Source: a bacterium
GTDB lineage: Bacteria; Patescibacteriota; Dojkabacteria; SC72; WJKH01
Assembly: GCA_029547225.1 (NCBI GenBank)
Contig: JAKPPS010000042.1
Span: 4,459-68,458, forward strand
Reading direction: 5' to 3'
Length of the DNA stretch: 64,000 nt
In this document: piece after piece, positions 2,099-54,927 of the stretch
Position numbering within the stretch: the first letter of the stretch is position 1
Layout: every line of letters starts with the position of its first letter
Made by a program: the position numbers and the translations under genes
Notes under the pieces: model-generated
The model's database searches: none
What the model saw: only the letters and a program-made list of their open reading frames with translations
Told to the model about the DNA's origin: nothing

Positions 2099-2704
2099 CC
2101 AACCAATACACCCAAAATTTTTAAAACTAGAACTTCTATATATTTTAGCTCCTCTACCTTTTCTATAATACATGTTTACCCTTTATTGATAACTTAAATG
2201 GCGGTTCGAGCAATGCCAACTCCCCTCAAAATGAAAATAGACAGAAAATCCATTTTGAAAAATATTTTTTATGCAAATATCAATACTTTTCAGCATTCCT
2301 GTTGTCATAAATAACTGTAAACCATTGTTATATAAGCATTCCCCCATAAACTAGGTTGGAATAATGAAATTAGTTTTGACAGAGAACAATTTTTGATTAA
2401 AATCAGTAGTCCAGTTGAAAGATAGCCTTGGTAAACGTATACTTGTGAATGGATACTTAGTGAAATGGTTCTTGAGTTTGTCCAAGACCCCCAACCAGTT
2501 TTTCACATTTTTAAGACCACGTTAAAGCCTTGAATTAATAAGTTATTTCAATTTCGAATCGGTTCGGAGTCCTAATTGCTAGGTTAGTGTTCATATACGA
2601 TTCCACCTGTGTTAATGGTATTTTCATAAGTTCGAATCCAAGTTACTATGCAACCTGTACAGAGTATATGGTTGACTGTATATTGCATCGGTTCGAGCCG
2701 TAGA
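2050..2704 (+). repeat. Modular intergenic element, copy 1 (long form, most diverged)
   Basis: The core block is CCAGTTGAAAGATAGCC...GTCCAAGACCCCCAACCA at 2411-2497. A roughly 190-nt 3' module is shared with copy 2. The element ends in TATGGTTGACTGTATA...GGTTCGAGCCGTAG at about 2668-2701. Confidence 0.7.
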
Positions 2705-2989
2705 TTACCGACACTTTTTAACTTGTGCTTTGGTTCGAGCTCGTTTTATGTCTAATTCATAAGCATTTCTTCTTTCTTGCTCTTTTGCTTGTAATGAAAA
2801 TTCCTCAAACCAAACTTCATATTTATCGCCATATTTTTCTTTTTTGCGTTTGTAGAAGTTTTGAATGACTGTTCCAAAATTAGTAAGGCGTTCAGCAATA
2901 AGTTCAACTTCTTCGTTGGGAAGAGGGCGATTGTACCGTTTATCGAAAATCATACGAATTAGATCGAGGTACTCGTGTGAAAAGTTCAT
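2705..2989 (-). CDS. Small conserved basic protein of unknown function (paralog of 6655..6933)
   Basis: Most residues are shared by eye with ORF 6655..6933 (MNFSHEYLDLIRMIFDKRYNR...KRKKEKYGDKYEVWFEEF...RARTK). I place the start at ATG 2989, which overlaps the upstream stop as ATGA. The ORF track starts at 3013. Confidence 0.6.
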   Translation of the reverse strand: MNFSHEYLDLIRMIFDKRYNRPLPNEEVELIAERLTNFGTVIQNFYKRKKEKYGDKYEVWFEEFSLQAKEQERRNAYELDIKRARTKAQVKKCR

Positions 2990-3936
2990 ATCCGGATTTC
3001 TTTTTCTAACCAATCAAATGTAGTGCCATTGTGTCTATCCCACCACATTTTTTCCCAAAGATAATGAACCGCTAAATGCTTGTATTTGCCAAATTTATTA
3101 ATATATTTCATCAACTTCTCAACAGGTAGTAATTCTTTATTAAAAAATAATCTTGAATATAACTTATGTTCCCATGGTGAGATATGTTCAAATACTTCCC
3201 AATGATGAAAAACATCAAATAGTAAATACCAAACTGTAGCAGGTCCTACACCATATAACGCTAGAAGAGTTTTTTTCTGAGTGATTAAATCCTTTCCCCT
3301 CAGTTCAAACTCATTTATTAGACCTTGTGAAAATTGCTGATCAATTTTAATTATGGATTTTGCTCTATATCCAATCTTTAGATCTCTCAGTTCTTGCTCG
3401 TCAATTTTAGAAAATCTACCAATATCCCACAGACAGAGTAATTTCTTTCCATCAAACTCTAACTCAGTTCCATAGTTTGATAATAAATTTCGAAACATTT
3501 GAATTGATCGACGGACAGAAGCATTTTGCAAAATTATTCCAATTATTAGATATTCATATAGTGAGCTTGGGTGACCAGGTCTCATTCCAATTAGTTCATT
3601 TATTGCAATATCGAGGAGTTTGTCTTTTATTGCTAATTTATAGAATTCATCTAAATCTAAATTTAAGTTGTATCTATAAATTATTTCATTTTTTAAACTT
3701 TCAATAAATTCAAAAGTGGGTTCTTGAATTGAAAAGACTGTAACTTTAATCCCAGGTGAAGCATCTTCATACTTGATACCAAGCATTTGACCTTCCCAGT
3801 TCATTGTCTGCCACCTTACACCTTTTTCATAAATATGATCATCGGTTGTGAAATGGTCAGGTTTAAAAAATGTTGCATCAAAATTAAATGGGGAAATTGG
3901 TCTTATAGAAATTGTTTTTGATTTATTCAACTGCAT
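2986..3936 (-). CDS. HhH-GPD superfamily DNA glycosylase (AlkA/Ogg-like)
   Basis: 316-aa ORF. The helix-hairpin-helix motif LLALYGVGPATVWYLL is followed by a conserved acidic region. Confidence 0.65.
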   Translation of the reverse strand: MQLNKSKTISIRPISPFNFDATFFKPDHFTTDDHIYEKGVRWQTMNWEGQMLGIKYEDASPGIKVTVFSIQEPTFEFIESLKNEIIYRYNLNLDLDEFYKLAIKDKLLDIAINELIGMRPGHPSSLYEYLIIGIILQNASVRRSIQMFRNLLSNYGTELEFDGKKLLCLWDIGRFSKIDEQELRDLKIGYRAKSIIKIDQQFSQGLINEFELRGKDLITQKKTLLALYGVGPATVWYLLFDVFHHWEVFEHISPWEHKLYSRLFFNKELLPVEKLMKYINKFGKYKHLAVHYLWEKMWWDRHNGTTFDWLEKEIRI

Positions 3937-4374: not shown

Positions 4375-4764
4375 TTATTCCTCAAATTTTTCAGATAATT
4401 CCCAGATGTAGCCTTCAATATCTCTAAAATAAGCAACCTTTTGCCCCCATGGTGTAGTTTTAGGATCTTGAATGAATTCAACGCCTTTCCCTTTAAGCTC
4501 TTTAGTGGCAATTTTTACGTCATCTACTTCAACTGCGAATATGTTTGAAGGCTTATCATCTGATGAGAAGTTGTTGAAACCGCACATGCCTTCAAGTGTT
4601 TCTTTTGTTAATAGGGCTATTACAAGTTCTCCCAGTTTAACTTCTGCAAACTTGTTTTCTTTGTCTATTGTTTTAACGGAAAGACCAAGTACATTAGTAT
4701 AAAAATCAAACGCTTTGTCAAAATCGTTTATTCTTATTCCTACTGCCATATATTTATTAAACAT
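4375..4764 (-). CDS. VOC (glyoxalase/bleomycin-resistance/dioxygenase) family protein
   Basis: 129-aa ORF. Its size and sequence pattern (GIRINDFDKAFDFYTNVLG...GYIWEL) are typical of the VOC fold. Confidence 0.65.
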   Translation of the reverse strand: MFNKYMAVGIRINDFDKAFDFYTNVLGLSVKTIDKENKFAEVKLGELVIALLTKETLEGMCGFNNFSSDDKPSNIFAVEVDDVKIATKELKGKGVEFIQDPKTTPWGQKVAYFRDIEGYIWELSEKFEE

Positions 4765-4782
4765 TTTATTGAAAATAATAAT

Positions 4783-5382
4783 TTAAGATAAAGGAATTTG
4801 TGATTGTGGTAATTTTACTGAATTACCATAATCCTTTACTGTTTTAACAAAAGAATCGTCTTTATTGCTCCCATTAAAGATCTTATTCCGAAAAACTATG
4901 TAAACTTCATCTTTAAAAGATAAATCTGCCCACCAATTTGGAAGTTTCAAATATTTGCTTAGCAAAGTCACAACTTCTTCAATCTTTGCTCTTGTAACCT
5001 CAACTTGATGCAATGTCCATGTAGGTTCTCCTGCATTAGTACTTGGATTATCATCTTGTTCAATTTTTGTTTCGGTAATTTTACATAGTTTTAGCAATTC
5101 TTTGTTTTCTAAGCTTTCCTCAATAATACAACCTTTGAAAATTTGTCCCCAGACTTCACCTTCTAATAACCATTTCTCGGCGGTTTGTTTTCTGTCGTTT
5201 TCAGATATTTCAGGGTGATCTGATTGAATATAATCTAACATACCCTTTAGAACTTCGTCATAGCACTTGAGATTTCCTTTTTTATCAACACAATAAGGAC
5301 AAAAACCATCTTTAATTATCTCTTCAGGTTTGTAGTCACTTAAAGGTCCACTACATGACCTACATAGTTTTGGCTTGTCCAT
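4783..5382 (-). CDS. Hypothetical protein with N-terminal CxxC...CxxC zinc ribbon
   Basis: 199-aa ORF starting MDKPKLCRSCSGPL...FCPYCVD. I recognise no family for the remainder. Confidence 0.4.
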   Translation of the reverse strand: MDKPKLCRSCSGPLSDYKPEEIIKDGFCPYCVDKKGNLKCYDEVLKGMLDYIQSDHPEISENDRKQTAEKWLLEGEVWGQIFKGCIIEESLENKELLKLCKITETKIEQDDNPSTNAGEPTWTLHQVEVTRAKIEEVVTLLSKYLKLPNWWADLSFKDEVYIVFRNKIFNGSNKDDSFVKTVKDYGNSVKLPQSQIPLS

Positions 5383-6006: not shown

Positions 6007-6023
6007 ATCTATAATTGTTAGTT

Positions 6024-6647
6024 CCTCATTTTGTTCAGAACAAGGGAGTTGTACTTGGAGTACTTTTCAAAAAATATTTTTATGTTTTCACGCAAAGATC
6101 TTGTATCTATGGGTATTTTCATTGTATAGCTGACTATAAATAGCGTAATTATATTGATATTACGCACCTTTTGTACTTGTTAAGAAATTAGTTCTAATTG
6201 AGAATGAATTCAACTCAAAATACTCAACCCAGTTGAAAGAAAGCTGTGGAATACGTATACTTGAGAAGGGATTGAGATGGAAAAAGTTCCTGAGTTTGTC
6301 CAACTCTCTCAATTTGAGCCTGTGCAATGCACAGTTGCAAATTGATAAACTAAAATGAGAAACATTTCATGCGAAGCATGAGTGGGGAGCAAGGTCCTGT
6401 CCACTACAAAGTAGTGGCAGGAAATCCAGGTCCGGCAACCAGTTTTTCATATTTTTAATACCACGTTAAAGCCTTGATTTAATGGGCTATTTCAATTTCA
6501 AATCGGTTCGGAGTCCTAATTGCTAGGTTTATGTCGATATTCGATTTGGTTTGTCTAATAGGTACTTTTCAAAGTTCGAATCCATATCACTATGCAACTT
6601 GTACAGAGTATATGGTTGACTGTATATCGTAGTGGTTCGAGCCGTAG
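6024..6647 (+). repeat. Modular intergenic element, copy 2 (long form; hairpin insert at the variable site)
   Basis: The 5' block and core (about 6025-6310) are nearly identical to copy 3. Insert 6311-6435 holds three perfect hairpins. The 3' module and end, TATGGTTGACTGTATA..GGTTCGAGCCGTAG, are shared with copy 1. Confidence 0.8.
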
Positions 6648-6654
6648 AAAACCG

Positions 6655-6933
6655 TTACTTTTTTACTTTTGATTTGGTTCGAGCGCGTTTTATGCCTAAT
6701 TCGTAGGCATTTCGACTCTCCTCCTCTTTAGTTTTTTCTGAAAATTCCTCAAACCAGACTTCATATTTATCTCCGTATTTTTCTTTTTTGCGTTTGTAGA
6801 AATTTTGAATTACTATTCCGAAGTTTGTTAGGCGTTGGGCGAAAAGTTCCACTTCTTCATTGGTAAGAGATCGATTGTACCGTTTTTCAAAAATTTTACG
6901 GATCAAACCTATATATTCATCTGAAAATTTCAT
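6655..6933 (-). CDS. Small conserved basic protein of unknown function (paralog of 2705..2989)
   Basis: 92-aa ORF, MKFSDEYIGLIRKIFEKRYNR...KRKKEKYGDKYEVWFEEF...RARTK. It starts 13 nt after the alaS stop. Confidence 0.6.
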   Translation of the reverse strand: MKFSDEYIGLIRKIFEKRYNRSLTNEEVELFAQRLTNFGIVIQNFYKRKKEKYGDKYEVWFEEFSEKTKEEESRNAYELGIKRARTKSKVKK

Positions 6934-6946
6934 ATGAATAAGATTT

Positions 6947-8851
6947 TTAAACTAGTGAAGCTTTAATACGCAATATACCACTTCCGATTTTTTCTTGGTT
7001 CAAGATCTTGAATCTTTTTCCATCTGAAACAATTTCATTTGTATTCTGAACATGAGGTCCACCACAAAATTCGGCTGATAAGTAGTCTTTCCTAGAAGCA
7101 TCATTAATATTTACGTTTTCTCTAAGTCCAATAACAAATACAGAAACGGTATCAGGATACTTTTGGCCAAACTCATGTTCAGCACCAATTCGTTCAGCTT
7201 CATTTTTTGGTAGATCAAACTTGTCAACGGAAATTCCTTCGTTGATTTTCTCACTTACAGTTAATTCTATCGTTTGTATTTCATCTTGAGTAATTTTTCT
7301 ATCAAGATTAATATCCAGCCTCAGTCTTTCTGGTGTTATGTTACTGCCTTTTTGATGTATCTCGTCACTAATTGTCAGTTGCAAAGTTCTAAGTAATAAA
7401 TGCTGAAGTGTATGGAGTTTCGTAGTTTCTTCAGAACTATCTGATAATCCACCTTTGAATTTTCCAATTGATGAGTTTCTAGATAGTTCTTGATGTTTTC
7501 GCATACACTCATTAAAGTCGTCTATAATTGTTAGCCTATCCTTTCCATTGACATCCAATGCTTCTAATGAAAGTTCACAAGGAAACCCATAAGTTTCGAA
7601 AATGTAAAACAAGTCCCTACCAGTGATTACTTCTTTTTCTTCACTAAGTTCTTCAATTTTCCTTAGTCCTTTATCAAGAGTTTTATTAAACTTCTCAATT
7701 TCGGAACTCAAAATCTCGCAAATAGACTCTAGTTGACTCTCAAAATGAGTATATTGCAATTTATATGTCTCGAAGAAACTTGTGCCTAATTCGATAATAA
7801 AAGACTTTTCTATACCCAAGACTTTGCCAGATCGCATTACTCTTCGAATTAACCGTCTAAGAATATATCCTCTATCTTTATTACTTGGAATTACGCCATC
7901 TGTTAGTAGGAAAATAATTCCCCTCATATGGTCGAGAATTATACGCAGGTTTTTTATTTCCTCTTTGGTACTGTCTTGAAAAGATTTTCCCGAGAGTTCC
8001 TCTAATAAAGTCCTTTGTGTATCGAAAAGTTCAGTATCATAAACCGAATACTTCATATCTAACGAACCGTCACTTTCCTTAAATTGACTTATGAGTGTAA
8101 TTCTTTCAAATCCTCCACCAAAGTCAATATTCTTCTGAACAAGTGGAACATACGTTTTTTCTTTTGTTTTGTTGTACCCCATAAACACATTATTGGAGAT
8201 TTCAATAAACATATTTGAAGTATCCCAAGGGACAAAACGTCTAAAGTCAGGCTTTTCTTTGCCTCTCCAATAGAATAATTCAGAATCAGGACCACATGGA
8301 CCAGTTTCTCCTGCTGGCCCCCACCAATTTTCTGTTTTCAACAATGGAAAGATTCGAGTATTTTCATTGAAATCTTTGCCGTCCCAAACTTCCGGTTCTA
8401 TCCCGACCGAACGATATAGTTCTTTCCACTTTTCAATTGCAATTCTATCTAGTTCTACATCCGTGTTTCCGACAAATACTGTCGAATAAAGTCTTTTAGG
8501 ATCAAACTTTAGTTTGTTTACAAAATAGTCGAAAGTAATTTCAAGTGACAGTTCTTTGAAGTAATCTCCGAGTGACCAATAACCTAACATTTCAAACAAT
8601 GTATGATGAATCGTGTCTCCAACTTCTTCAATGTCATCAGTTCTGAAGCAACGTTGAACATTTACAAGTCTTTGACCTAATGGGTGCAATTCACCAAGAA
8701 GATATACAACTAAAGGATGCATACCTGCAGTAGTAAACAATACACTTGGGTCATTAACAGGAATTAAAGAAGAATTGGGGATTTCTTTGTGATTGTATTT
8801 TTGAACTAGAAGATTGATAAAATCTTCTTTTATTGATTTTGATAAATTCAT
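6947..8851 (-). CDS. alaS: Alanine--tRNA ligase, short form lacking the C-terminal C-Ala domain
   Basis: The N-terminus (FTTAGMHPL...RCFRTDDIEEVGD..HHTLFEMLGYWSLGDYFK) matches the AlaRS class II core. The editing-domain motif CGGPHV lies near the C-terminus. The ORF is only 634 aa. Confidence 0.9.
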   Translation of the reverse strand: MNLSKSIKEDFINLLVQKYNHKEIPNSSLIPVNDPSVLFTTAGMHPLVVYLLGELHPLGQRLVNVQRCFRTDDIEEVGDTIHHTLFEMLGYWSLGDYFKELSLEITFDYFVNKLKFDPKRLYSTVFVGNTDVELDRIAIEKWKELYRSVGIEPEVWDGKDFNENTRIFPLLKTENWWGPAGETGPCGPDSELFYWRGKEKPDFRRFVPWDTSNMFIEISNNVFMGYNKTKEKTYVPLVQKNIDFGGGFERITLISQFKESDGSLDMKYSVYDTELFDTQRTLLEELSGKSFQDSTKEEIKNLRIILDHMRGIIFLLTDGVIPSNKDRGYILRRLIRRVMRSGKVLGIEKSFIIELGTSFFETYKLQYTHFESQLESICEILSSEIEKFNKTLDKGLRKIEELSEEKEVITGRDLFYIFETYGFPCELSLEALDVNGKDRLTIIDDFNECMRKHQELSRNSSIGKFKGGLSDSSEETTKLHTLQHLLLRTLQLTISDEIHQKGSNITPERLRLDINLDRKITQDEIQTIELTVSEKINEGISVDKFDLPKNEAERIGAEHEFGQKYPDTVSVFVIGLRENVNINDASRKDYLSAEFCGGPHVQNTNEIVSDGKRFKILNQEKIGSGILRIKASLV

Positions 8852-9055
8852 AAATATTGCCTAATAAGTTATATCTACAAGGACGTTTCCGTGGTACCAC
8901 CTTGCTTTGAGTTACTATCACTAATAACTCCTTATTAGGTTTCTATCAAAACCTTTTTGTTTACAGTTTCTATCTGGATCTACTTAGTCACATTTCTGTT
9001 TGTTGTAGTCTGCTCGGGAGTGGCTGGCCTTTCGACCTCTTTCCTTCAATGCATT
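8852..9055 (-). promoter_or_regulatory. T-box riboswitch leader upstream of alaS
   Basis: The minus-strand RNA contains GCAAGG-UGGUACC-ACG-GAAA-CGU-CCUUGU (8905-8877). This gives helix A1 CAAGG/CCUUG, the 7-nt bulge UGGUACC and helix A2 ACG/CGU with a GAAA loop. A Stem-III-like hairpin GAGUUA..UAACUC (8930-8909) sits just upstream. Confidence 0.75.
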
Positions 9056-9061
9056 TATATA

Positions 9062-9090: not shown

Positions 9091-9099
9091 AAAACGTTT

Positions 9100-9431
9100 C
9101 TCATTTTGTTCAGAATAAGGGAGTTGTACTTGGAGTACTTTTCCAAAAATATTTTTATGTTTTCACGCAAAGATCTTGTATCTATGGGTATTTTCATTGT
9201 ATAGCTGACTATAAATAGCGTAATTATATTGATATTACGCACCTTTTGTACTCGTTAAAAAATTAGTTCGAATTGAGAATGAATTCAACTCAAAGCACTC
9301 AACCCAGTTGAAAGAAAGCTGTGGAATACGTATACTTAAGAAAGGGTTGAGGTGGAAAAAGTTAACCATTTTGTCCAACTCCCCCAACCACAACTACCGG
9401 TTGACACTATATAGTAGTGGTTCGAGCCGTC
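9100..9431 (+). repeat. Modular intergenic element, copy 3 (minimal form, about 330 nt, variable site empty)
   Basis: The 5' block and core are nearly identical to copy 2. The core runs straight through CTCCCCCAACCA (about 9378-9390) into GGTTGACACTATATAGTAGTGGTTCGAGCCGT. Confidence 0.8.
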
Positions 9432-9480
9432 ATAAATAGGAACTTTGATCGCAAGAAAGTTCAAAAATTTAATAAAAAAT

Positions 9481-10425: not shown

Positions 10426-10430
10426 TTGTT

Positions 10431-11046
10431 CATGAGTTTGTTCAGAACTTTCTAGTAAATTTTGAAAACAAAGTTGGATTATCACGCAAAACATATTGAT
10501 AATCCATTGTTTTCAATATACTAGTTTTGATTAAATTGTAAAAGATCCTGATATTGCTAGCTTTTCACCACTTCAAGAAACAACTGCTTGTTTGCAAATA
10601 AACGTTTATCGAAATCCTCACTCCAATTGAAAGATAATGCTGGAATGCGTATACTTAAGAAAGGGTTGAGATGGAAAAAGTTAACCATTTTGTTCAGCTC
10701 CCCCAATGGTTCGACAGGCTCACCATTGCAAGGATATAATAGATTTATGCGGACGGTATATATTCTTCTTTGCGATGACAAAACATATTATGTCGGTATA
10801 ACGACTGATTTAAGTAATCGCCTTTTTCAGCATCGAAATGGCGATTCTTTTTATACTAAACGATTTAAACAATTAGATTTAGTGTATCGAGAGGAATTAG
10901 CAAATCAAATAGAAGCTGAAAAAAGAGAGAGGCAGATAAAGAAATGGAGTAGAGCAAAGAATTGTCGAAGGGAGTCCATGTCCCGCAACCAAGGTGTCCT
11001 GTACAAACACTATGGTTGACCATATATAACAATGGTTCGAGCCGTA
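10431..11046 (+). mobile_element. Modular intergenic element, copy 4, carrying a GIY-YIG ORF at the variable site
   Basis: 5' block TTTGTTCAGAA..CACGCAAAACATATTGATAA. Core at 10622-10705. Hairpin AATGGT-TCGACAGGCTC-ACCATT, then the ORF. 3' end CGCAACCA..TATGGTTGACCATATA..GGTTCGAGCCGTA. Confidence 0.75.
10747..11019 (+). CDS. GIY-YIG (URI domain) nuclease family protein, small stand-alone type
   Basis: MRTVYILLCDDKTYYVGITTDLSNRLFQHRNG...EKRERQIKKWSRAKN carries the GIY/YVG...R...E motifs. The start is taken at internal ATG 10747, because the upstream part of ORF 10588.. is the element core. The last 19 or so codons read through element 3' sequence. Confidence 0.75.
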   Translation: MRTVYILLCDDKTYYVGITTDLSNRLFQHRNGDSFYTKRFKQLDLVYREELANQIEAEKRERQIKKWSRAKNCRRESMSRNQGVLYKHYG

Positions 11047-11128
11047 TGAAATCAACTTTTTCGCATTTCTAAAATCGGTTCGAGTATATTCGATAGAAAA
11101 AAATCATTATTTCTGATAGTATTTAAGC

Positions 11129-11752
11129 ATGATAAAAAAATTAAACTTTTCAAACGAGTTCTTTGAGGTTTCTTATATTAATGATCAGATAATTGAATCT
11201 ATTGATAATTTTACAATTGTTGTAAATTTATCTAAAAATCCAATTAAAGTTGATTTTGTTAGCGAAATTACCCAGGATAAATCATTTATGCTTCATAAAT
11301 GTAACAAACCGTTAAAAGTGAATGAGTGCCTGCTTGTCAAATACAATTTTGATCCATCAATTGTGAATCTAGATCTACAGAAATTCTGCACTTCCAATTG
11401 GAACAATAACAAAATAAGATATCCAGAGGATCCTTCAAAATGGAATTATGCTATTTTACGCTCTCCTATAGATAAATTAGGCAAGTTTGAATTTAACTGT
11501 TGGTATTTACCAAAAAATACAGCAAGTAGTATTCATAATGAACACTCATTTACAGAAGTACACACACAAATTTACGGTTTAGGTATTATGAATAAATTCT
11601 CAGATAATAATAAGGAGTCGCTTTATCAAAGAATGTATATGGCTCCAGGTTTTACCCACGATTACTTCTTCAATAACGAGATTAAATATCCATGGCACCA
11701 ATATGAAGCAGTAAGCGAATGTATTTGGATGGCTATTTGCAAATACAAATAG
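11129..11752 (+). CDS. Hypothetical protein
   Basis: 207-aa ORF bracketed by element copies 4 and 5. I recognise no family. The His-rich stretch SIHNEHSFTEVHTQ could bind metal (speculative). Confidence 0.4.
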   Translation: MIKKLNFSNEFFEVSYINDQIIESIDNFTIVVNLSKNPIKVDFVSEITQDKSFMLHKCNKPLKVNECLLVKYNFDPSIVNLDLQKFCTSNWNNNKIRYPEDPSKWNYAILRSPIDKLGKFEFNCWYLPKNTASSIHNEHSFTEVHTQIYGLGIMNKFSDNNKESLYQRMYMAPGFTHDYFFNNEIKYPWHQYEAVSECIWMAICKYK

Positions 11753-11765
11753 AAGTAAATTGTTC

Positions 11766-12450
11766 ATCATTTTGTTCAGAATGGGTGACCTGAACATGAA
11801 GGTACTTTTCAAAAATAATCCTGTACGTTCACGCAAAACATATTGATAAACCAACATTTCGGCAATGTAACATTTAGCATAAATCGTAAAAGAGCTTGAT
11901 ATTCCTACGTTTTTACGATTTCAAGAAACAATTGCTTATTAGTAAATAATCGTTTGTAAAAATACTCAACCCAGTTGAAAGAAAGCTGTGGAATACGTAT
12001 ACTTGAGAAGGGATTGAGATGGAAAAAGTTCCTGAGTTTGTCCAACTCCCCCAATGGTTCGACAGGCTCACCATTGTATTTGTTTTTAAAATTGATAACT
12101 TTATATATTCTTCTTTGCGATAAAACTTACTATTATGTTGGAATAACATCCGATTTAGAAAATCGAGTTTTTCAACATAGTAATAAATTATCATTTTATA
12201 CAAAAAGATTTAATAACATTGAAGTAGTTTATACTGAAAAGTATTTAAATCTTAAAGATGCTGAAAAGAGAGAAATGCAAATAAAGAAATGGAGTAAAGC
12301 AAAGAAGAAGTCTTTGATAGAAGAGAATATATCTGAATTGGTGAGCTTATCGAAGCATAGTTAAGCCAAAGAGAGAGCCTTATGAGTTTGCATCGAGCAA
12401 ATCCTGAGTTTCTCTAAGGATCGTCGAGGTGAGTCCAGTTTGGACAATTT
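11766..12450 (+). mobile_element. Modular intergenic element, copy 5, carrying a GIY-YIG ORF; the canonical 3' block is missing
   Basis: 5' block TTTGTTCAGAA..CACGCAAAACATATTGATAA. Core at 11970-12052. The same AATGGTTCGACAGGCTCACCATT hairpin precedes the ORF. The post-ORF GTCGAGGTGAGTCCAGTTTGGAC resembles copy 4, but there is no GGTTGAC..GGTTCGAGCCGTA end. Confidence 0.65.
12092..12364 (+). CDS. GIY-YIG (URI domain) nuclease family protein, small stand-alone type
   Basis: LYILLCDKTYYYVGITSDLENRVFQHSN...EKREMQIKKWSKAKK. The start is uncertain: I chose TTG 12092, while the ORF track starts at 11975 inside the element core. Confidence 0.65.
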   Translation: MITLYILLCDKTYYYVGITSDLENRVFQHSNKLSFYTKRFNNIEVVYTEKYLNLKDAEKREMQIKKWSKAKKKSLIEENISELVSLSKHS

Positions 12451-25590: not shown

Positions 25591-25964
25591 GGCAAGTATT
25601 CTAGACAGTTGCCCCTCCTTCTAAGTAATTTCTGATTATTTAGGCGGAGGGGAGGAAAGTCCGGACTTCAAGCTGTCTCCAGCAATACGGAGATGATGCC
25701 TGTGAGAGCAGGGTAGGTGTGAGCTTACGGATAAAAGGGCAACAGAAAATTACCGCCTCACGCAAGTGAGGTAAGGGTGAAAAGGTGAGGTAAGAGCTCA
25801 CCGCATCTGCTGTAAAGTAAGATGGCTATGTAACCCCCTTCAGAAGCAAGGTCAAACCGCAGGTATCGGTTGCGATACCGGATATATCGGTAATTTATTA
25901 CTAGGTATTATCCAGATAGATAACTGTCCAAAACAGAATTCGGCTTATTGGATGCTTGCCACTA
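25591..25964 (+). ncRNA. rnpB: RNase P RNA, bacterial type A
   Basis: Universal blocks GAGGAAAGTCCGG, GGTAAGGGTGAAA, GGTAAGAGC, AGCAAGG and ACAGAATTCGGCTTA. P1 pairs GGCAAGTA (25591-) with (T)GCTTGCC (-25960). Confidence 0.95.
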
Positions 25965-35386: not shown

Positions 35387-37070
35387 AATTACTTTGAGAA
35401 ATTAATAATTCTTTATATGTAAAACACCTTTCAGACAACTGTTTATGTGTACCTATATCAACTATCTTTCCGTGGTCAAGGACGATAATCTGATCACAAT
35501 CTCGAACAGATGAGATTTTTTGACTGATGAGTATAGTTGTTAAATCAGGGTAATCACGATTTAGCCTTTCAAATAATAACCTTTCTGTTTTATTGTCTAA
35601 TTTACTAGTACTGTCATCAAAAATAAGAATTTGAGGATTTCTTATCAAAGCTCGAGCAATCATGATTCTTTGTTTCTGACCGCCGGAGATTGTTGTACCT
35701 CTTTCTCCGATTAATGTTTCTAGGCCATCTTTGAGACTAGCTACAAAATCATCAAGTACAACAGTATTCAGGATTTTCTGTAAAGATTTATCATTTTGAT
35801 CAAGTCCGAATTTAATGTTTTCTCTAATTGATGTGTTGAAGATGTATTGCTCTTGTGGTACAAATCCGATCATATCTAAGTAAGACTGCAAGGAATAATT
35901 CTTAATATTCTCTCCGTTAACAATAATTTCCCCTTCATCAGGTTCGACTAACCGGATGAGAGTTTTAAGTAATAGAGTTTTACCAGATCCTGTAGAACCA
36001 ACTACGCCGACACTTTCTCCTTTAGAAATCTTTATTGAAATCGGACCTAATGTAAAATTTCCTTTAACGATAATATCTTTAAATTTCAAATCATGGAAAT
36101 TCTTTAAATCCTTTTCACCTTGTTCAATTTTATCATTGTAATCAAGTACTTCAGACATACGTTTAATAGAAGATAATGATTGCCCAGCAGAAGATACTAT
36201 AAAGCCAAGTATTATAATCGGCGAAGTAAATATTGTTGTGTAATTTATAAATGCAGCTATCTCGCCAATACTCATCTCTCCATTGATTGATTTGAGACCT
36301 CCGATGATGACAATTAATAATGTCGCGATATTAATAAAAATTGAAATTAGTGGTACAAAAATAGAAAATATATTTACTATCTTCAATGAATTTAGTCTTG
36401 TATCATTATTTACATCTCGAAACTTTGTATTTTCAATATCTTCTGTGGTAAACACCTTAATTAAGGCACTACCAATAATAGATTCTGTAATGGTCTTGTT
36501 AAGGTCATCGTTTAGAGTCCTAGATTTCTCAAAGAATTTTTGAGCTTTTTTGAAAACGAATGTGAAAGCAATAAACATAATCGGTATTAATGCAAGGACA
36601 TATAATGTAAGTGTAACATTAGTCCTGAACATCAAAAACAAACTCCCGCATACTAATATCACTCCTGCGGTGAAAACTGGTACAGCCATCGAAAGTATGT
36701 CTTTAACCAAAAAAATATCTGTTGTCATAACATTCAATAACTTTTGTGAGGTTTGATTTTTGACGAATCTTATTGATGAACGGGCGAGTTTACTAGCAAT
36801 TTCATTGCGCAAGTCACGGGCAATGATTTCAGAAGTAATAAGATTGATGATTTTATAAATAAAGTAAATACCAATCGATGAACCAGCGATAATAAATAAT
36901 AAATTTATTTCCTTGAAATCTTGGGCACCGGAAGCGTATTTGTCGATTATAATACCTCCTAAATAGGGCATAATAATATATGAGACATTTGATATCGCTG
37001 TAAAAACAAAGCTTATCGCCTGTAACAACAACACTTTAGGTTTTAATGCTTGTTTGATTACTGAATTCAC
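35370..37070 (-). CDS. ABC transporter, fused permease/ATP-binding protein (first half of a heterodimeric exporter pair)
   Basis: Walker A GSTGSGKTL, signature ISGGQKQR and Walker B ILIFDDSTS. Confidence 0.9.
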   Translation of the reverse strand: MNSVIKQALKPKVLLLQAISFVFTAISNVSYIIMPYLGGIIIDKYASGAQDFKEINLLFIIAGSSIGIYFIYKIINLITSEIIARDLRNEIASKLARSSIRFVKNQTSQKLLNVMTTDIFLVKDILSMAVPVFTAGVILVCGSLFLMFRTNVTLTLYVLALIPIMFIAFTFVFKKAQKFFEKSRTLNDDLNKTITESIIGSALIKVFTTEDIENTKFRDVNNDTRLNSLKIVNIFSIFVPLISIFINIATLLIVIIGGLKSINGEMSIGEIAAFINYTTIFTSPIIILGFIVSSAGQSLSSIKRMSEVLDYNDKIEQGEKDLKNFHDLKFKDIIVKGNFTLGPISIKISKGESVGVVGSTGSGKTLLLKTLIRLVEPDEGEIIVNGENIKNYSLQSYLDMIGFVPQEQYIFNTSIRENIKFGLDQNDKSLQKILNTVVLDDFVASLKDGLETLIGERGTTISGGQKQRIMIARALIRNPQILIFDDSTSKLDNKTERLLFERLNRDYPDLTTILISQKISSVRDCDQIIVLDHGKIVDIGTHKQLSERCFTYKELLISQSNYGKDQ

Positions 37071-37136
37071 AATACAGTATTATACTCTCATTACAGAAAT
37101 TTTGAACTACCTTCTCGTGATAATATTAGTAAATAA

Positions 37137-37184
37137 CTATATATCAGAGCAAAATCCGAACGCGACCTCTAACAATCACTATCC
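37137..37184 (-). repeat. Box-2 intergenic repeat (degenerate)
   Basis: The reverse complement reads GGATAGTGATTGTTAGAGGTCGCG..GCTCTGATATATAG. This only partly matches the box-2 consensus. Confidence 0.35.
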
Positions 37185-37250
37185 AAGGGCCTGTTTTCAA
37201 AAAATGCATATTTATAGTATCGTGCAAGCTGTACTGAAATAACATAATGC

Positions 37251-37302
37251 TTGGGTAGTCATGGATAGCTTTTAACGGAACGCAATTAGGTTGGTGGCAT
37301 AC
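37251..37302 (+). repeat. Box-1 intergenic repeat
   Basis: TGGGTAGTCATGGATAGCTTTTAACGGAACGCAATTAGGTTGGTGGCATACC. Confidence 0.7.
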
Positions 37303-37437
37303 CTAAAAAATATATACTCTATGATGTTAAACTAATTATTTGCTAAAAAATCTACATAATAATAATATAGAGTAAAGTGAGTTCGTTGATCGATCAGATC
37401 TGTTCAAGCAGTTTAAATTTAGTTTCGTTATAGAAAA

Positions 37438-38172
37438 ATGCAAAATATCCGGAAATACCATAAAGAAGATAATTATTCATATTCACTTGGGGTTTTTACA
37501 ACAATAGAGCTTTTACAAAATCGTCCTCAAGATGTACTAAAAGTACTTTTAAGTAATAAAAGTGATAGGAATAAAGGTGTCGATAAGATCAAAGATATTT
37601 GCCAGAAAAACAACATTGAATATGTATATGCTGACGGTCAAATAAATCGTGTTTCCGATAAGGAGAATACTTATGCAGTTGGAGTATTTGAAAAGTATAA
37701 TTCTCAATTGGAAGGTATTGACGAAAAAAATCAGCACTTAGTACTTGTGAGACCGTTGAATGCAGGTAATATGGGCACAAATATCCGCACAGCTGTAGCT
37801 TTTGGTATTAAGAATATTGCTGTAATAAGACCTGCAGTGGACATATTTAATCCTCAAATTATTTCAAGCTCTATGGGGGCAATATTTAGCGTAAATATCG
37901 AATATTTTGACTCTCTTGAGCTTTATATGAAAAAATATAATCCTAAAAATTGTTATTCTTTTGTACTTGCAGAACCCAGCTCCCGAACTTTGTTAAATCA
38001 AGTTACTATAGTAAAACCAGCTTCCTTTGTTTTTGGTAACGAAGGGGAGGGTTTGACAGATAGCGAATTAAAGTTTGGGCAAAAAATAATGATTGAACAG
38101 AGTGATAATGTTGATTCATTAAATTTATCTGTGGCTGTAGGAATCGGTCTTTATAGAGCATATATTAGCTAA
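37438..38172 (+). CDS. SpoU/TrmH-family RNA 2'-O-methyltransferase
   Basis: 244-aa ORF with C-terminal SPOUT motifs (NAGNMGTNIRTA, FGNEGEGL, SLNLSVAVGI). Confidence 0.8.
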   Translation: MQNIRKYHKEDNYSYSLGVFTTIELLQNRPQDVLKVLLSNKSDRNKGVDKIKDICQKNNIEYVYADGQINRVSDKENTYAVGVFEKYNSQLEGIDEKNQHLVLVRPLNAGNMGTNIRTAVAFGIKNIAVIRPAVDIFNPQIISSSMGAIFSVNIEYFDSLELYMKKYNPKNCYSFVLAEPSSRTLLNQVTIVKPASFVFGNEGEGLTDSELKFGQKIMIEQSDNVDSLNLSVAVGIGLYRAYIS

Positions 38173-52711: not shown

Positions 52712-52785
52712 TTTTTTATACGTTATCTTTTAATAGTATTGAGTATATTTATATCGTGTTAGTGATTATATTACAAAGTATTGAT

Positions 52786-52837
52786 TGGGTAGTCATGGAT
52801 AAATATTAAAGGAACGCAAGTTGGTTGGTGGCATACC
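52786..52837 (+). repeat. Box-1 intergenic repeat, between the umuD-like and umuC-like genes
   Basis: TGGGTAGTCATGGATAAATATTAAAGGAACGCAAGTTGGTTGGTGGCATACC. Confidence 0.7.
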
Positions 52838-52845
52838 ATAAACGA

Positions 52846-54855: not shown

Positions 54856-54927
54856 CTCCGCGACCAGGATTCGAACCTGGAACCAACCGGTTAACAGCCG
54901 GTCGCTCTACCATTGAGCTATCGCGGA
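54856..54927 (-). tRNA. tRNA-Asn (anticodon GTT)
   Basis: The full cloverleaf was read by hand: acceptor TCCGCGA/TCGCGGA, D stem GCTC/GAGC, anticodon stem ACCGG/CCGGT with loop CTGTTAA, T stem CCAGG/CCTGG with loop TTCGAAT. CCA is not encoded. Confidence 0.95.

Follow-up and report, generated by a model that had tools for sequence, protein, structure and literature searches.

A 64,000-nt stretch of contig JAKPPS010000042.1 (assembly GCA_029547225.1, Dojkabacteria), referred to here as the window, contains five copies (c1 to c5) of a repeated module, and two of these, c4 and c5, were found to be occupied at the same joint by an insertion of about 280 to 390 bp that consists of a short hairpin and a 90-codon gene for a GIY-YIG nuclease. 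The best explanation is that c4 and c5 each hold a selfish cassette and that c2 holds a decayed one. The architecture of the cassette, its insertion site, the association of motif and nuclease across the family, the occupied, empty, and decayed states of the site, and a mosaic flank were all observed. On this basis we lean toward a minimal homing-type GIY-YIG cassette, bounded by inverted copies of the hairpin motif and targeting tRNA-acceptor-like ends, by a mechanism that we infer. An earlier reading of the same DNA, made from the letters alone (the sequence-only reading), had described the hairpins and the nuclease open reading frames (ORFs) and had likened them to homing endonuclease genes lodged in self-splicing introns.

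The five copies lie on the plus strand between housekeeping genes, in DNA from an organism of low GC content (32.8%), and have in common a core of about 90 nt that terminates in CTCCCCCA (Table 1). Directly after the core in c4 and c5 stands the 23-nt hairpin AATGGTTCGACAGGCTCACCATT. As the sequence-only reading had stated, it is the same perfect hairpin in both copies; these are its only two occurrences in the window, and none would be expected by chance even if three mismatches were allowed. The identity between c4 and c5 around the hairpin in fact extends over 31 nt (CTCCCCCAATGGTTCGACAGGCTCACCATTG), and the flanks of the two copies are only 73 to 80% identical. The stem, first described as 6 bp, can be read as 7 bp around an 11-nt loop, with a folding energy as DNA of -4.5 to -4.8 kcal/mol and z-scores of -1.2 to -2.1. 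What is notable about the hairpin is the conservation of its sequence and not its stability. The hairpin motif is also found upstream of homologous ORFs in four other loci (L134, L260, L262, and L263).

Table 1. Features of the repeated module, the cassettes, and the related loci (positions refer to the window)
Feature	Position	Strand	Remarks
Repeat copy c1	about 2190-2745	+	
Repeat copy c2	about 6016-6690	+	
Repeat copy c3	about 9091-9440	+	
Repeat copy c4	about 10428-11102	+	
Repeat copy c5	about 11757-12450	+	
Empty joint, c1	2486-2497	+	reads GACCCCCAACCA, i.e., GACCCCCA then ACCA; ortholog in L262 occupied
Empty joint, c3	9379-9390	+	reads CTCCCCCAACCA, i.e., CTCCCCCA then ACCA; nothing inserted
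ORF-less cassette remnant, c2	6313-6437 (125 nt)	+	same joint; inverted-motif-like TTGAGCCTGTGCAA at its start, GGAAATCCAGGTCCGGCA at its end, then ACCA
Left hairpin (left inverted repeat), c4 cassette	10705-10727	+	AATGG-TTCGACAGGCTCA-CCATT; exact match; initial 1-2 bases in common with host joint CTCCCCCAA
GIY-YIG ORF, c4	10747-11019	+	ATG start; PF01541 E = 1.9e-15; homology to about 10961, then read-through (10962-11019)
Right end, c4 cassette	10964-10987	+	GTCGAAGG + GAGTCCATGTCCCGCA; the latter part mimics tRNA-Gln T-stem and acceptor 3' strand
ACCA and 3' block, c4	10988-11102	+	outside cassette; homologous to sequence after genuine tRNA-Gln in L264
Left hairpin (left inverted repeat), c5 cassette	12053-12075	+	exact match; fold -4.5 kcal/mol, z = -2.05
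GIY-YIG ORF, c5	12092-12364	+	TTG start, full length; PF01541 E = 2.4e-12; UPF0213/YhbQ/Slx1-type single domain
Right inverted repeat, c5	12338-12358	+	TTGGTGAGCTTATCGAAGCAT; inside ORF end, codes for conserved nuclease tail LVSLSKH
Right end, c5 cassette	12423-12446	+	GTCGAGG + TGAGTCCAGTTTGGACA; aligns with c4 and c2 right ends
Minus-strand small ORF, c1	2351-2494	-	paralog
Minus-strand small ORF, c2	6160-6312	-	paralog
Minus-strand small ORF, c3	9235-9387	-	paralog
Minus-strand small ORF, c4	10557-10706	-	49 codons; TTG start at joint
Minus-strand small ORF, c5	11905-12054	-	paralog
Relative ORF, L134			directly after tRNA-Gln(ctg)
Relative ORF, L260			directly after tRNA-Gln(ttg); tRNA 3' duplicate GATTCCACGTCCCGCA
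Relative ORF, L263			directly after tRNA-Gln(ctg); tRNA 3' duplicate GAATCCTGGTCCCGCA
Relative ORF, L135			directly after tRNA-Glu(ctc); tRNA 3' duplicate ATCCCGATGGGGTCA
Relative ORF, L261			directly after tRNA-Glu(ttc); tRNA 3' duplicate TCCCGGTAGGGTCA
Relative ORF, L256/257/259			directly after tRNA-Ser(tga); L256 duplicate 18 nt of tRNA + 25 nt of flank

Three states of the joint were observed: empty in c1 and c3, occupied in c4 and c5, and filled by an ORF-less insert in c2 and in a related locus, L264. The uninterrupted junction that the sequence-only reading had pointed out in c3 is matched by a second one in c1. After the cassette of c4 the sequence continues with GTCCCGCAACCA (10980-10991), that is, GTCCCGCA followed by ACCA, and then the 3' block, and the stop codon of the c4 ORF (11017-11019) falls inside the conserved TATGGTTGAC, exactly as had been described; the cassette of c5 has no 3' block behind it. 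The right ends of the two cassettes differ, being of the tRNA-Gln type in c4 versus TTGGACA in c5. The segment GTCGAAGGGAGTCC at the right end of the c4 cassette is identical to positions 10369-10382 of L134, and the module CATGCGAAGCATGA is common to the c2 remnant and L261, with a similar module in L134. At the right repeat of c5, the loop motif is matched with one mismatch on the minus strand (12342-12354), and the inverted motif agrees at 15 of 19 positions. A scan for terminator-like hairpins gave a match at 12433-12445, within the right end of the same cassette. The parts of a cassette are, in order, a left hairpin repeat, the nuclease gene, a right repeat that coincides with the end of this gene and encodes its LVSLS[KN]H tail, and a short tail, the last segment of which resembles a tRNA T-stem and acceptor. 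That hairpin and ORF form a discrete, mobile-like insertion at one joint was borne out by the alternative states of the joint and also by the occupied ortholog L262 and the affinity of the c4 nuclease to L260, both taken up below.

Both window ORFs were confirmed as GIY-YIG genes that follow the hairpin, with Pfam scores of 57.3 and 47.4 bits for PF01541 against a cutoff of 22.6; beyond this domain only a weak, overlapping match to T5orf172 was obtained. Residues Y5, Y15, G17, R25, H29, and E61 are invariant in the family alignment (A7), the two window ORFs included, and members of the family begin M-W-x-[LV]-Y-I-L. The protein is a stand-alone domain of about 90 amino acids (aa), and its only sequence matches in the PDB are two UPF0213 structures, 1YWL and 1ZG2 (EF2693 and BH0048; E = 1e-5). 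No NCBIfam model matched either window ORF, and the model for group I intron endonucleases (TIGR01453) gave 16.7 bits against a cutoff of 56 for a relative, P0004. An I-TevI-like architecture is absent, as the protein ends right behind the catalytic domain, with no DNA-binding extension. The subfamily search that the sequence-only reading had proposed thus points to a nuclease of the UPF0213/COG2827 type rather than the intron-encoded, I-TevI-like type. The c4 and c5 nucleases are 65% identical with a ratio of nonsynonymous to synonymous substitution rates (dN/dS) of about 0.28, which indicates that both have been under purifying selection. In c4, homology to the family stops at ...KKWSRAK; the last 19 codons merely read through the end of the cassette, then the tRNA-like end and the 3' block, so that this gene has lost its native C-terminal tail and, with it, the right inverted repeat. 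A HMMER search of 1.84 billion representative sequences matched 4407 clusters at E <= 1e-3 and, at the stricter E <= 1e-10, 118. In tblastn searches, the nuclease had no match among plasmids, and among phages only distant GIY-YIG genes of Rhizobium phages were found.

A word-index search yielded eight relatives besides the window's own ORF, from which six independent loci were drawn; overall, the comparison covered seven host copies and about ten cassette loci. In each of the six, a tRNA gene in the same orientation immediately precedes the ORF, and a duplicate of the 3' part of that tRNA follows it. The insertion point is exactly behind the discriminator base. At the Gln loci, the tRNA end ...CCCGCA-A abuts (A)TGGTTCGACAAGCTCACCATT, which differs by one loop base from the window hairpin; at the Glu loci this loop has closing bases of the CCC/GGG rather than the TGG/CCA type. 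Next in line, the motif recurs in inverted orientation (for example at window 12342-12354, L135 7524-7544, and L134 10340-10354, at or after the ORF end) and then the tRNA duplicate, which starts in the T-loop. The duplicated segment measures 14 to 44 nt (L135, L256, L260, L261, L263, and L264), whereas the window has only an acceptor-like 11 to 17 nt. Because the duplicate in L256 reaches 25 nt past the tRNA, it is derived from the target, and because the tRNA 3' end is repeated behind the cassette, the tRNA stays whole. Decay of the sort usual for selfish genes was seen as in-frame stops in L262 and L263, an internal deletion in L259, and the lost tail of c4. The association of the ORF with the core or the 3' block, which the sequence-only reading had named as its test, held in a seventh relative, L262, whose cassette occupies the same host joint as the window copies, and did not hold in the six relatives at tRNA genes. 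In L134 (9883-10700), one tRNA-Gln has behind it three motif hairpins in forward orientation, and the 3' end of this tRNA is present there in at least four copies; these are insertions stacked in three rounds, a layout comparable to the tandem arrangement in the window.

A constant position and orientation immediately downstream of tRNA genes would also be expected if the ORF encoded an ordinary repair or processing nuclease that is cotranscribed with the tRNA, the hairpin being an RNA processing or terminator element. The very large size of the family (4407 representative clusters) and the weak resemblance of motif doublets to an expressed small RNA (sRNA) family, RF02901 (31 bits against a gathering threshold of 97), fit such a host function as well. 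Against it stand the duplication of the tRNA ends, the existence of pseudogenes and of remnants without an ORF, a patchy distribution (the tRNA-Asn gene of the window has no cassette), the position of the window cassettes at a joint that is not a tRNA, and the stacked insertions of L134. We consider a tRNA-linked host function very unlikely.

Evidence bearing on movement came from L262, the ortholog of the empty copy c1 (89% identity), which is occupied. The flank of L262 is a mosaic: it resembles c1 (22 to 30 matches per 30 nt) until about 45 nt before the joint and c4 from there on (24 to 28 per 30), a pattern that looks like a co-conversion tract. Furthermore, the c4 nuclease is nearer to that of L260 (76% identity) than to that of c5, which argues for separate arrivals, and the c4 cassette carries a right end of the tRNA-Gln type that is unlike the left end of its host, consistent with movement. 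These observations have to be set against another history, in which a single old insertion was spread by segmental duplication and the cassettes of c4 and c5 are now immobile; the hairpin would then owe its identity to gene conversion or to selection for a regulatory role, as a promoter, a terminator, or a processing site. That c4 and c5 are mutually the closest host copies (80%), that both ORFs are intact, and that strains show no polymorphism would agree with this, as would a promoter-like arrangement in which the c4 loop TCGACA is followed 18 nt downstream by TATAAT, the best such match in the region (11 of 12). Promoter-like sites occur in the region no more often than in shuffled sequence, however (20 found versus 20.3 expected), and a single old insertion would account neither for the nearness of c4 to L260 and the different right ends of the two cassettes nor for the occupied c1 ortholog with its mosaic flank and the presence of the same cassette at unrelated tRNA genes elsewhere. 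This history is therefore regarded as distinctly unlikely. Searches for further copies of the core, with a 21-base pattern against genome contigs, gave no match; a 16-base pattern gave chance matches in metagenomes, and nhmmer found the core in none of L001-L128. In one strain contig, L133, positions 4760-5045 join c2 to c3 (window 6021-6312 and 9096-9387), leaving out the 3075-bp segment of alaS and its leader; the 292-nt repeats, which are 93% identical, may have recombined to give this junction, or else the assembly collapsed there.

The host joint itself resembles a tRNA end. The c3 joint can be compared with the acceptor 3' strand, discriminator, and CCA of tRNA-Gln (TCCCGCA-A-CCA in L260, L263, and L264), and between the window joint, TCCCCCA-ACCA, and the tRNA-Gln end, TCCCGCA-ACCA, 10 of 11 positions agree. 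In c4, the closing segment TCCATGTCCCGCAACCA matches the T-stem, acceptor, and CCA of the L260 tRNA-Gln(ttg) at 16 of 17 positions. In the window, the cassette uses a site that mimics a tRNA end, TCCCCCA followed by ACCA. In the right half of the module, window positions 10972-11102, containing the 3' block, are 80% identical over 131 nt to L264 11192-11065, where this sequence follows a genuine tRNA-Gln(ttg) and ACCA. Since the 3' block matches a tRNA-Gln flank, the repeated module is composite, its right half being what follows tRNA-Gln. Farther along L264 there is a 5' region and core of the c4/c5 type (83% identity over 297 nt); this core ends in CAGCTCCCCCA and is followed by AC, an ORF-less cassette, and a 19/20 copy of the tRNA-Gln end. 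Judging by these alignments, the cassette is located where a tRNA acceptor end, or a mimic of one, meets ACCA. Neither ARAGORN nor the Rfam tRNA model recognized the core as a degenerate tRNA; by eye, only its last 11 nt are tRNA-like.

When window positions 10972-12054 were compared with L264 11192-10004, the flanks proved to be conserved and the enclosed ORFs unrelated (207 aa versus 247 aa). The L264 stretch from tRNA-Gln to its duplicate is 1.2 kb long and has 27 to 34% GC within a contig of 45 to 48% GC. The layout common to L264 and the window looks like that of a carrier with exchangeable cargo that was horizontally moved. Such an arrangement raises the alternative of Campbell-type integration, in which cassettes and larger modules would be moved by a tyrosine or serine recombinase acting in trans at an attachment site that mimics the tRNA 3' end, the GIY-YIG protein being cargo or an addiction or maintenance factor. 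Direct repeats of the tRNA 3' end flanking the inserts, the AT-rich 1.2-kb stretch of L264 between tRNA-Gln and its 19/20 duplicate, common flanks around unrelated cargo ORFs, and joints that always read ..CA-ACC(A) speak for integration. The gene tables of the inspected loci hold no integrase or recombinase gene, however, the units are only 0.3 to 1.2 kb, the duplication varies in length from 14 to 44 nt, and the link between motif and nuclease persists away from tRNA genes (L205, L234, and L265). Integration in trans is thus an unlikely explanation in our estimate.

The analogy to introns drawn by the sequence-only reading required that the core be a structured RNA, with the nuclease ORF in one of its loops as in group I introns. 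An ORF at a fixed position of a repeated element would fit this, most copies allow a stem, CTCAACCC/GGGTTGAG, to be drawn, and group I introns are common in tRNA genes of Patescibacteria (PMC13011429). The latter introns are located in the anticodon loop, however, and are hence inapplicable here. No copy of the module (c1 to c5) or the hairpin had an Rfam match, group I and II introns included, either at the gathering threshold or at E <= 10, and ARAGORN detected neither a split nor a whole tRNA in the host element, whose flanks are intergenic; flanking exons are thus lacking. Minimum free energy folding of the minimal copy was unremarkable (z-scores of only -2.1 on the plus and -1.6 on the minus strand), and RNAalifold with six copies gave -7.2 kcal/mol with a covariation term of +0.28, a weak negative given the small sample of six or seven copies. 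Double changes were present at three pairs and are broken in L262, as is the one apparent compensatory change in c1, of which L262 is the ortholog. With the codon-position bias of the core fitting a minus-strand gene and the relatives of the ORF standing at tRNA ends instead of in such an RNA, the intron analogy was dropped, and an intron- or ribozyme-like host appears extremely unlikely.

Rather, the core probably codes for a small protein on the minus strand, as judged from its substitution pattern. An ORF of 44 to 50 codons is open on this strand in 7 of 7 copies (the five in the window, L262, and L264), and the gene caller annotates it in L264 as P0010. Nineteen residues are invariant in the five window copies plus P0010 (alignment A5), and the identical nineteen in an alignment that includes L262 (A4). 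For the three close pairs that are independent of one another, dN/dS comes to about 0.15; their substitutions at codon positions 1, 2, and 3 number 20, 12, and 38 (chi-square of about 15, P of about 5e-4, by our own calculation). The protein follows the pattern LGELDK..NFFHLNPF.SIRIP.LSFNW..., for which AlphaFold predicted two helices (predicted local distance difference test score of 72); Pfam gave no match for it. The TTG start of this ORF coincides with the CAA of CTCCCCCAA, which places the cassette exactly upstream of the start codon, the two being arranged head to head. The first codons of the ORF, ELDKLR, correspond to TTGGACAAACTCAGG, which matches the forward motif at 12 of 15 positions. 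The sequence-only reading had also allowed that the core might be a conserved N-terminal domain of the plus-strand nuclease; since the family starts with M-W-x-[LV]-Y-I-L and the codon bias fits the minus strand, this was rejected. The module is thus made up of a minus-strand small ORF, a tRNA-like joint, and a tRNA-Gln flank, and annotation as a structured RNA is inappropriate. An invariant sigma-70-like pair on the plus strand, TTGAAA-17-TATACT (9308-9336, 10627-10655, and 11975-12003), would read toward the cassette; it is inseparable from codons of the minus-strand ORF (SFNW and SIR) and represents an alternative or additional cause of core conservation.

The hairpin motif extends far beyond the relatives of the window. 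A 19-mer centered on the loop, TGGTTCGACARGCTCACCA, was found base for base in at least 120 species representatives of many phyla, among them Dehalococcoidia, Alpha-, Beta-, and Gammaproteobacteria, Nitrospirota, Bacteroidota, Cyanobacteria, Elusimicrobia, and a metagenome-assembled genome (MAG) of Kaiserbacteria, and also in 92 stretches of viral contigs; about 9 chance matches would be expected in the genome collection, by our calculation from the information content of the pattern. The motif is often paired with an inverted sister unit, ccc-TGAGCTTGTCGAA-ggg. Its three closing pairs covary (TGG/CCA versus CCC/GGG), and beyond them about half of 137 instances are complementary (47 to 50% versus 26 to 39% in shuffles, at positions 4 to 7). 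Conservation extends to the right flank of the motif (CGAACGG/TGAGG), so that freely covarying long stems, as tried on the 137 instances against shuffles, were upheld only in part.

Every close relative of the ORF has the motif, although L256 has just a degenerate inverted copy. Among the matches listed, two of the 120 genome loci (L205 and L234, from Lysobacterales MAGs) have an ORF of the nuclease clade within 100 nt of the motif, with motif copies flanking it, and no such ORF was present anywhere in the stretches around the 92 viral motif loci. The ORF stands between inverted copies of the motif in the window, L135, L205, L234, and L265, and it is the inverted motif that encodes L-x-x-LSK[HS], the C-terminal tail conserved in the family. 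Moreover, peptides encoded by the motif (GSTGSP, FDKLR, RQAQG, STSSG, LSLSK, GELVEP, and PELVEG) were found in N- or C-terminal extensions of 23 of 149 cluster representatives, where fewer than 1 such representative would be expected by chance, on our rough estimate from residue frequencies. We believe that in genome annotation the motif often gives rise to spurious peptides, among them FDKLR, STSSG, LSLSK, and PELVEG. Motif doublets in a Methylococcales MAG and a Gallionella MAG (L150 3267-3433 and L180 591-748) gave 31 and 26 bits for RF02901 (Aggregatibacter sRNA 41), below its gathering threshold; these matches hint at transcription of such repeats in some bacteria.

How the cassette might spread can be put together from these parts. 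The nuclease would recognize the motif, as a hairpin or otherwise, or the tRNA-like end, and break unoccupied sites; repair by copying of an occupied copy would then spread the cassette by gene conversion, that is, by homing. Duplication of the tRNA 3' end would keep the tRNA functional, with CCA added posttranscriptionally where the encoded CCA is lost, and the ORF-less hairpins would be the nonautonomous or decayed majority. Several points weigh against such a homing cassette. The likeness of the host joint to a tRNA end spans only 11 nt, an obvious module for sequence-specific binding of DNA is lacking from the 90-aa GIY-YIG domain, and we know of no UPF0213 member that has been shown to be a homing enzyme. 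Duplications of 14 to 44 nt are the classical footprint of integrase-type recombination and are not explained by simple homing. The mosaic of L262 may equally stem from ordinary recombination between paralogous copies, and five strain-level contigs from five Joint Genome Institute (JGI) metagenomes (3300025740, 3300010342, 3300009676, 3300009673, and 3300025724), 99.7 to 100% identical to the window, carry identical cassettes with no presence/absence polymorphism. A more distant relative, L265/L266, has the unit of motif, ORF, and inverted motif with no adjoining tRNA, and since most motif copies have no nuclease gene nearby, the hairpin family may have a biology of its own. A broader claim would be that the motif, [TGG/CCC]-TTCGACA[AG]GCTCA-[CCA/GGG], together with the 90-aa UPF0213 protein, defines a new multi-phylum class of nuclease-only elements that have inverted hairpin ends, home to tRNA acceptor ends or their mimics, rebuild the tRNA by duplication, and leave abundant ORF-less repeats behind; this is put forward tentatively, as a possibility more doubtful than not.

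Other features of the window touch these subjects less closely. A T-box leader upstream of alaS (6947-8851, minus strand) was detected at 8876-9058 on the minus strand with a subthreshold Rfam score (43.5 bits versus a gathering threshold of 93; E = 4.5e-7). Two paralogous minus-strand ORFs of 102 and 92 aa (2705-3013 and 6655-6933) abut the 3' blocks of c1 and c2; they belong to a 300-nt repeat of 82% identity, and their only Pfam likeness, to UvrD_C, is weak. A 91-nt direct repeat of 75% identity occurs at 37218-37308 and 52752-52842; its first copy lies between divergent ORFs and had no Rfam match at E <= 1 (36900-37700 searched). Class A RNase P RNA is encoded at 25593-25962 on the plus strand (181 bits), and a tRNA-Asn(gtt) gene at 54856-54927 on the minus strand has no cassette or motif adjoining it.

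In the full-text literature, mostly outside subscription journals, no description was found of the motif, of its peptides, or of an association of UPF0213/YhbQ proteins with mobility, repeats, or tRNA. What we describe looks like a small, widespread, selfish DNA cassette that is apparently undescribed, and there is a fair chance that it is a distinct class of element. If the reading as a homing-type cassette is right, a very large uncharacterized bacterial branch of UPF0213/YhbQ (4407 cluster representatives) would have a selfish, hairpin-linked role in mobility, there would be an explanation for an intergenic motif of which every base agrees in bacteria of many phyla, and tRNA genes would be open to invasion without an integrase, the tRNA being left intact. 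An enzyme-substrate pair, the c5 protein and the empty joint of c3, would make the proposal directly testable.

Among known systems, the free-standing GIY-YIG homing endonucleases of phage T4, the Seg proteins, include SegB, which is located in a tRNA gene cluster (PMC2330249). With these and with I-TevI the cassette has in common the GIY-YIG catalytic domain, the occurrence as small selfish genes at conserved sites, decay to pseudogenes, and, as suggested here by the L262 mosaic, the co-conversion of flanking markers. I-TevI and the Seg enzymes, however, have 200 to 250 aa or more with a C-terminal DNA-binding domain, whereas the cassette protein is a bare 90-aa domain of the UPF0213 clade; in addition, the cassette has inverted copies of a motif that is conserved across phyla, its target tRNA end is duplicated and not just interrupted, and no intron is involved. 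In domain and size the protein equals UPF0213/COG2827 members (Escherichia coli YhbQ, EF2693 [1YWL], and BH0048 [1ZG2]) and the domain of eukaryotic Slx1. Slx1 is a structure-specific nuclease, an activity that would suit recognition of a hairpin or cruciform, but it needs Slx4 and has a RING/PHD finger; for proteins of the UPF0213/YhbQ/Slx1 type, we know of no description of mobility or of a link to repeats or tRNA.

Repetitive extragenic palindromes (REPs and REPINs) and their RAYT (TnpA-REP) enzymes likewise combine a dispersed intergenic hairpin repeat, often in inverted doublets, with a rare enzyme gene flanked by inverse copies. The cassette enzyme is a GIY-YIG protein, whereas RAYT is an HUH/Y1 transposase; REPs are lineage specific, whereas the 13-nt loop of the cassette motif is identical across phyla, and its copy number in the window is very low. 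Insertion sequences (IS) and MITEs (miniature inverted-repeat transposable elements) can be compared in their inverted terminal motifs (15/19 in c5), in a right repeat that lies inside the end of the enzyme gene, an arrangement of many IS, and in ORF-less derivatives that outnumber autonomous ones. They differ in having DDE, serine, or HUH transposases, none of which occurs here, and a target duplication of fixed length, which here is tRNA derived and varies (14 to 44 nt); as far as we know, a GIY-YIG nuclease alone cannot catalyze strand transfer. With tRNA-targeting integrative elements the cassette has in common insertion at the tRNA 3' end, a restoring direct repeat, and tandem stacking (L134 and the window), but the locus gene tables contain no integrase gene, the inserts being too small to hold one, the units are 0.3 to 1.2 kb and not many kilobases, and the repeat length is variable. 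By analogy, then, the cassette would work most like a free-standing GIY-YIG homing gene, while it looks like a REP/RAYT system with another enzyme and leaves a footprint like that of tRNA-targeting islands.

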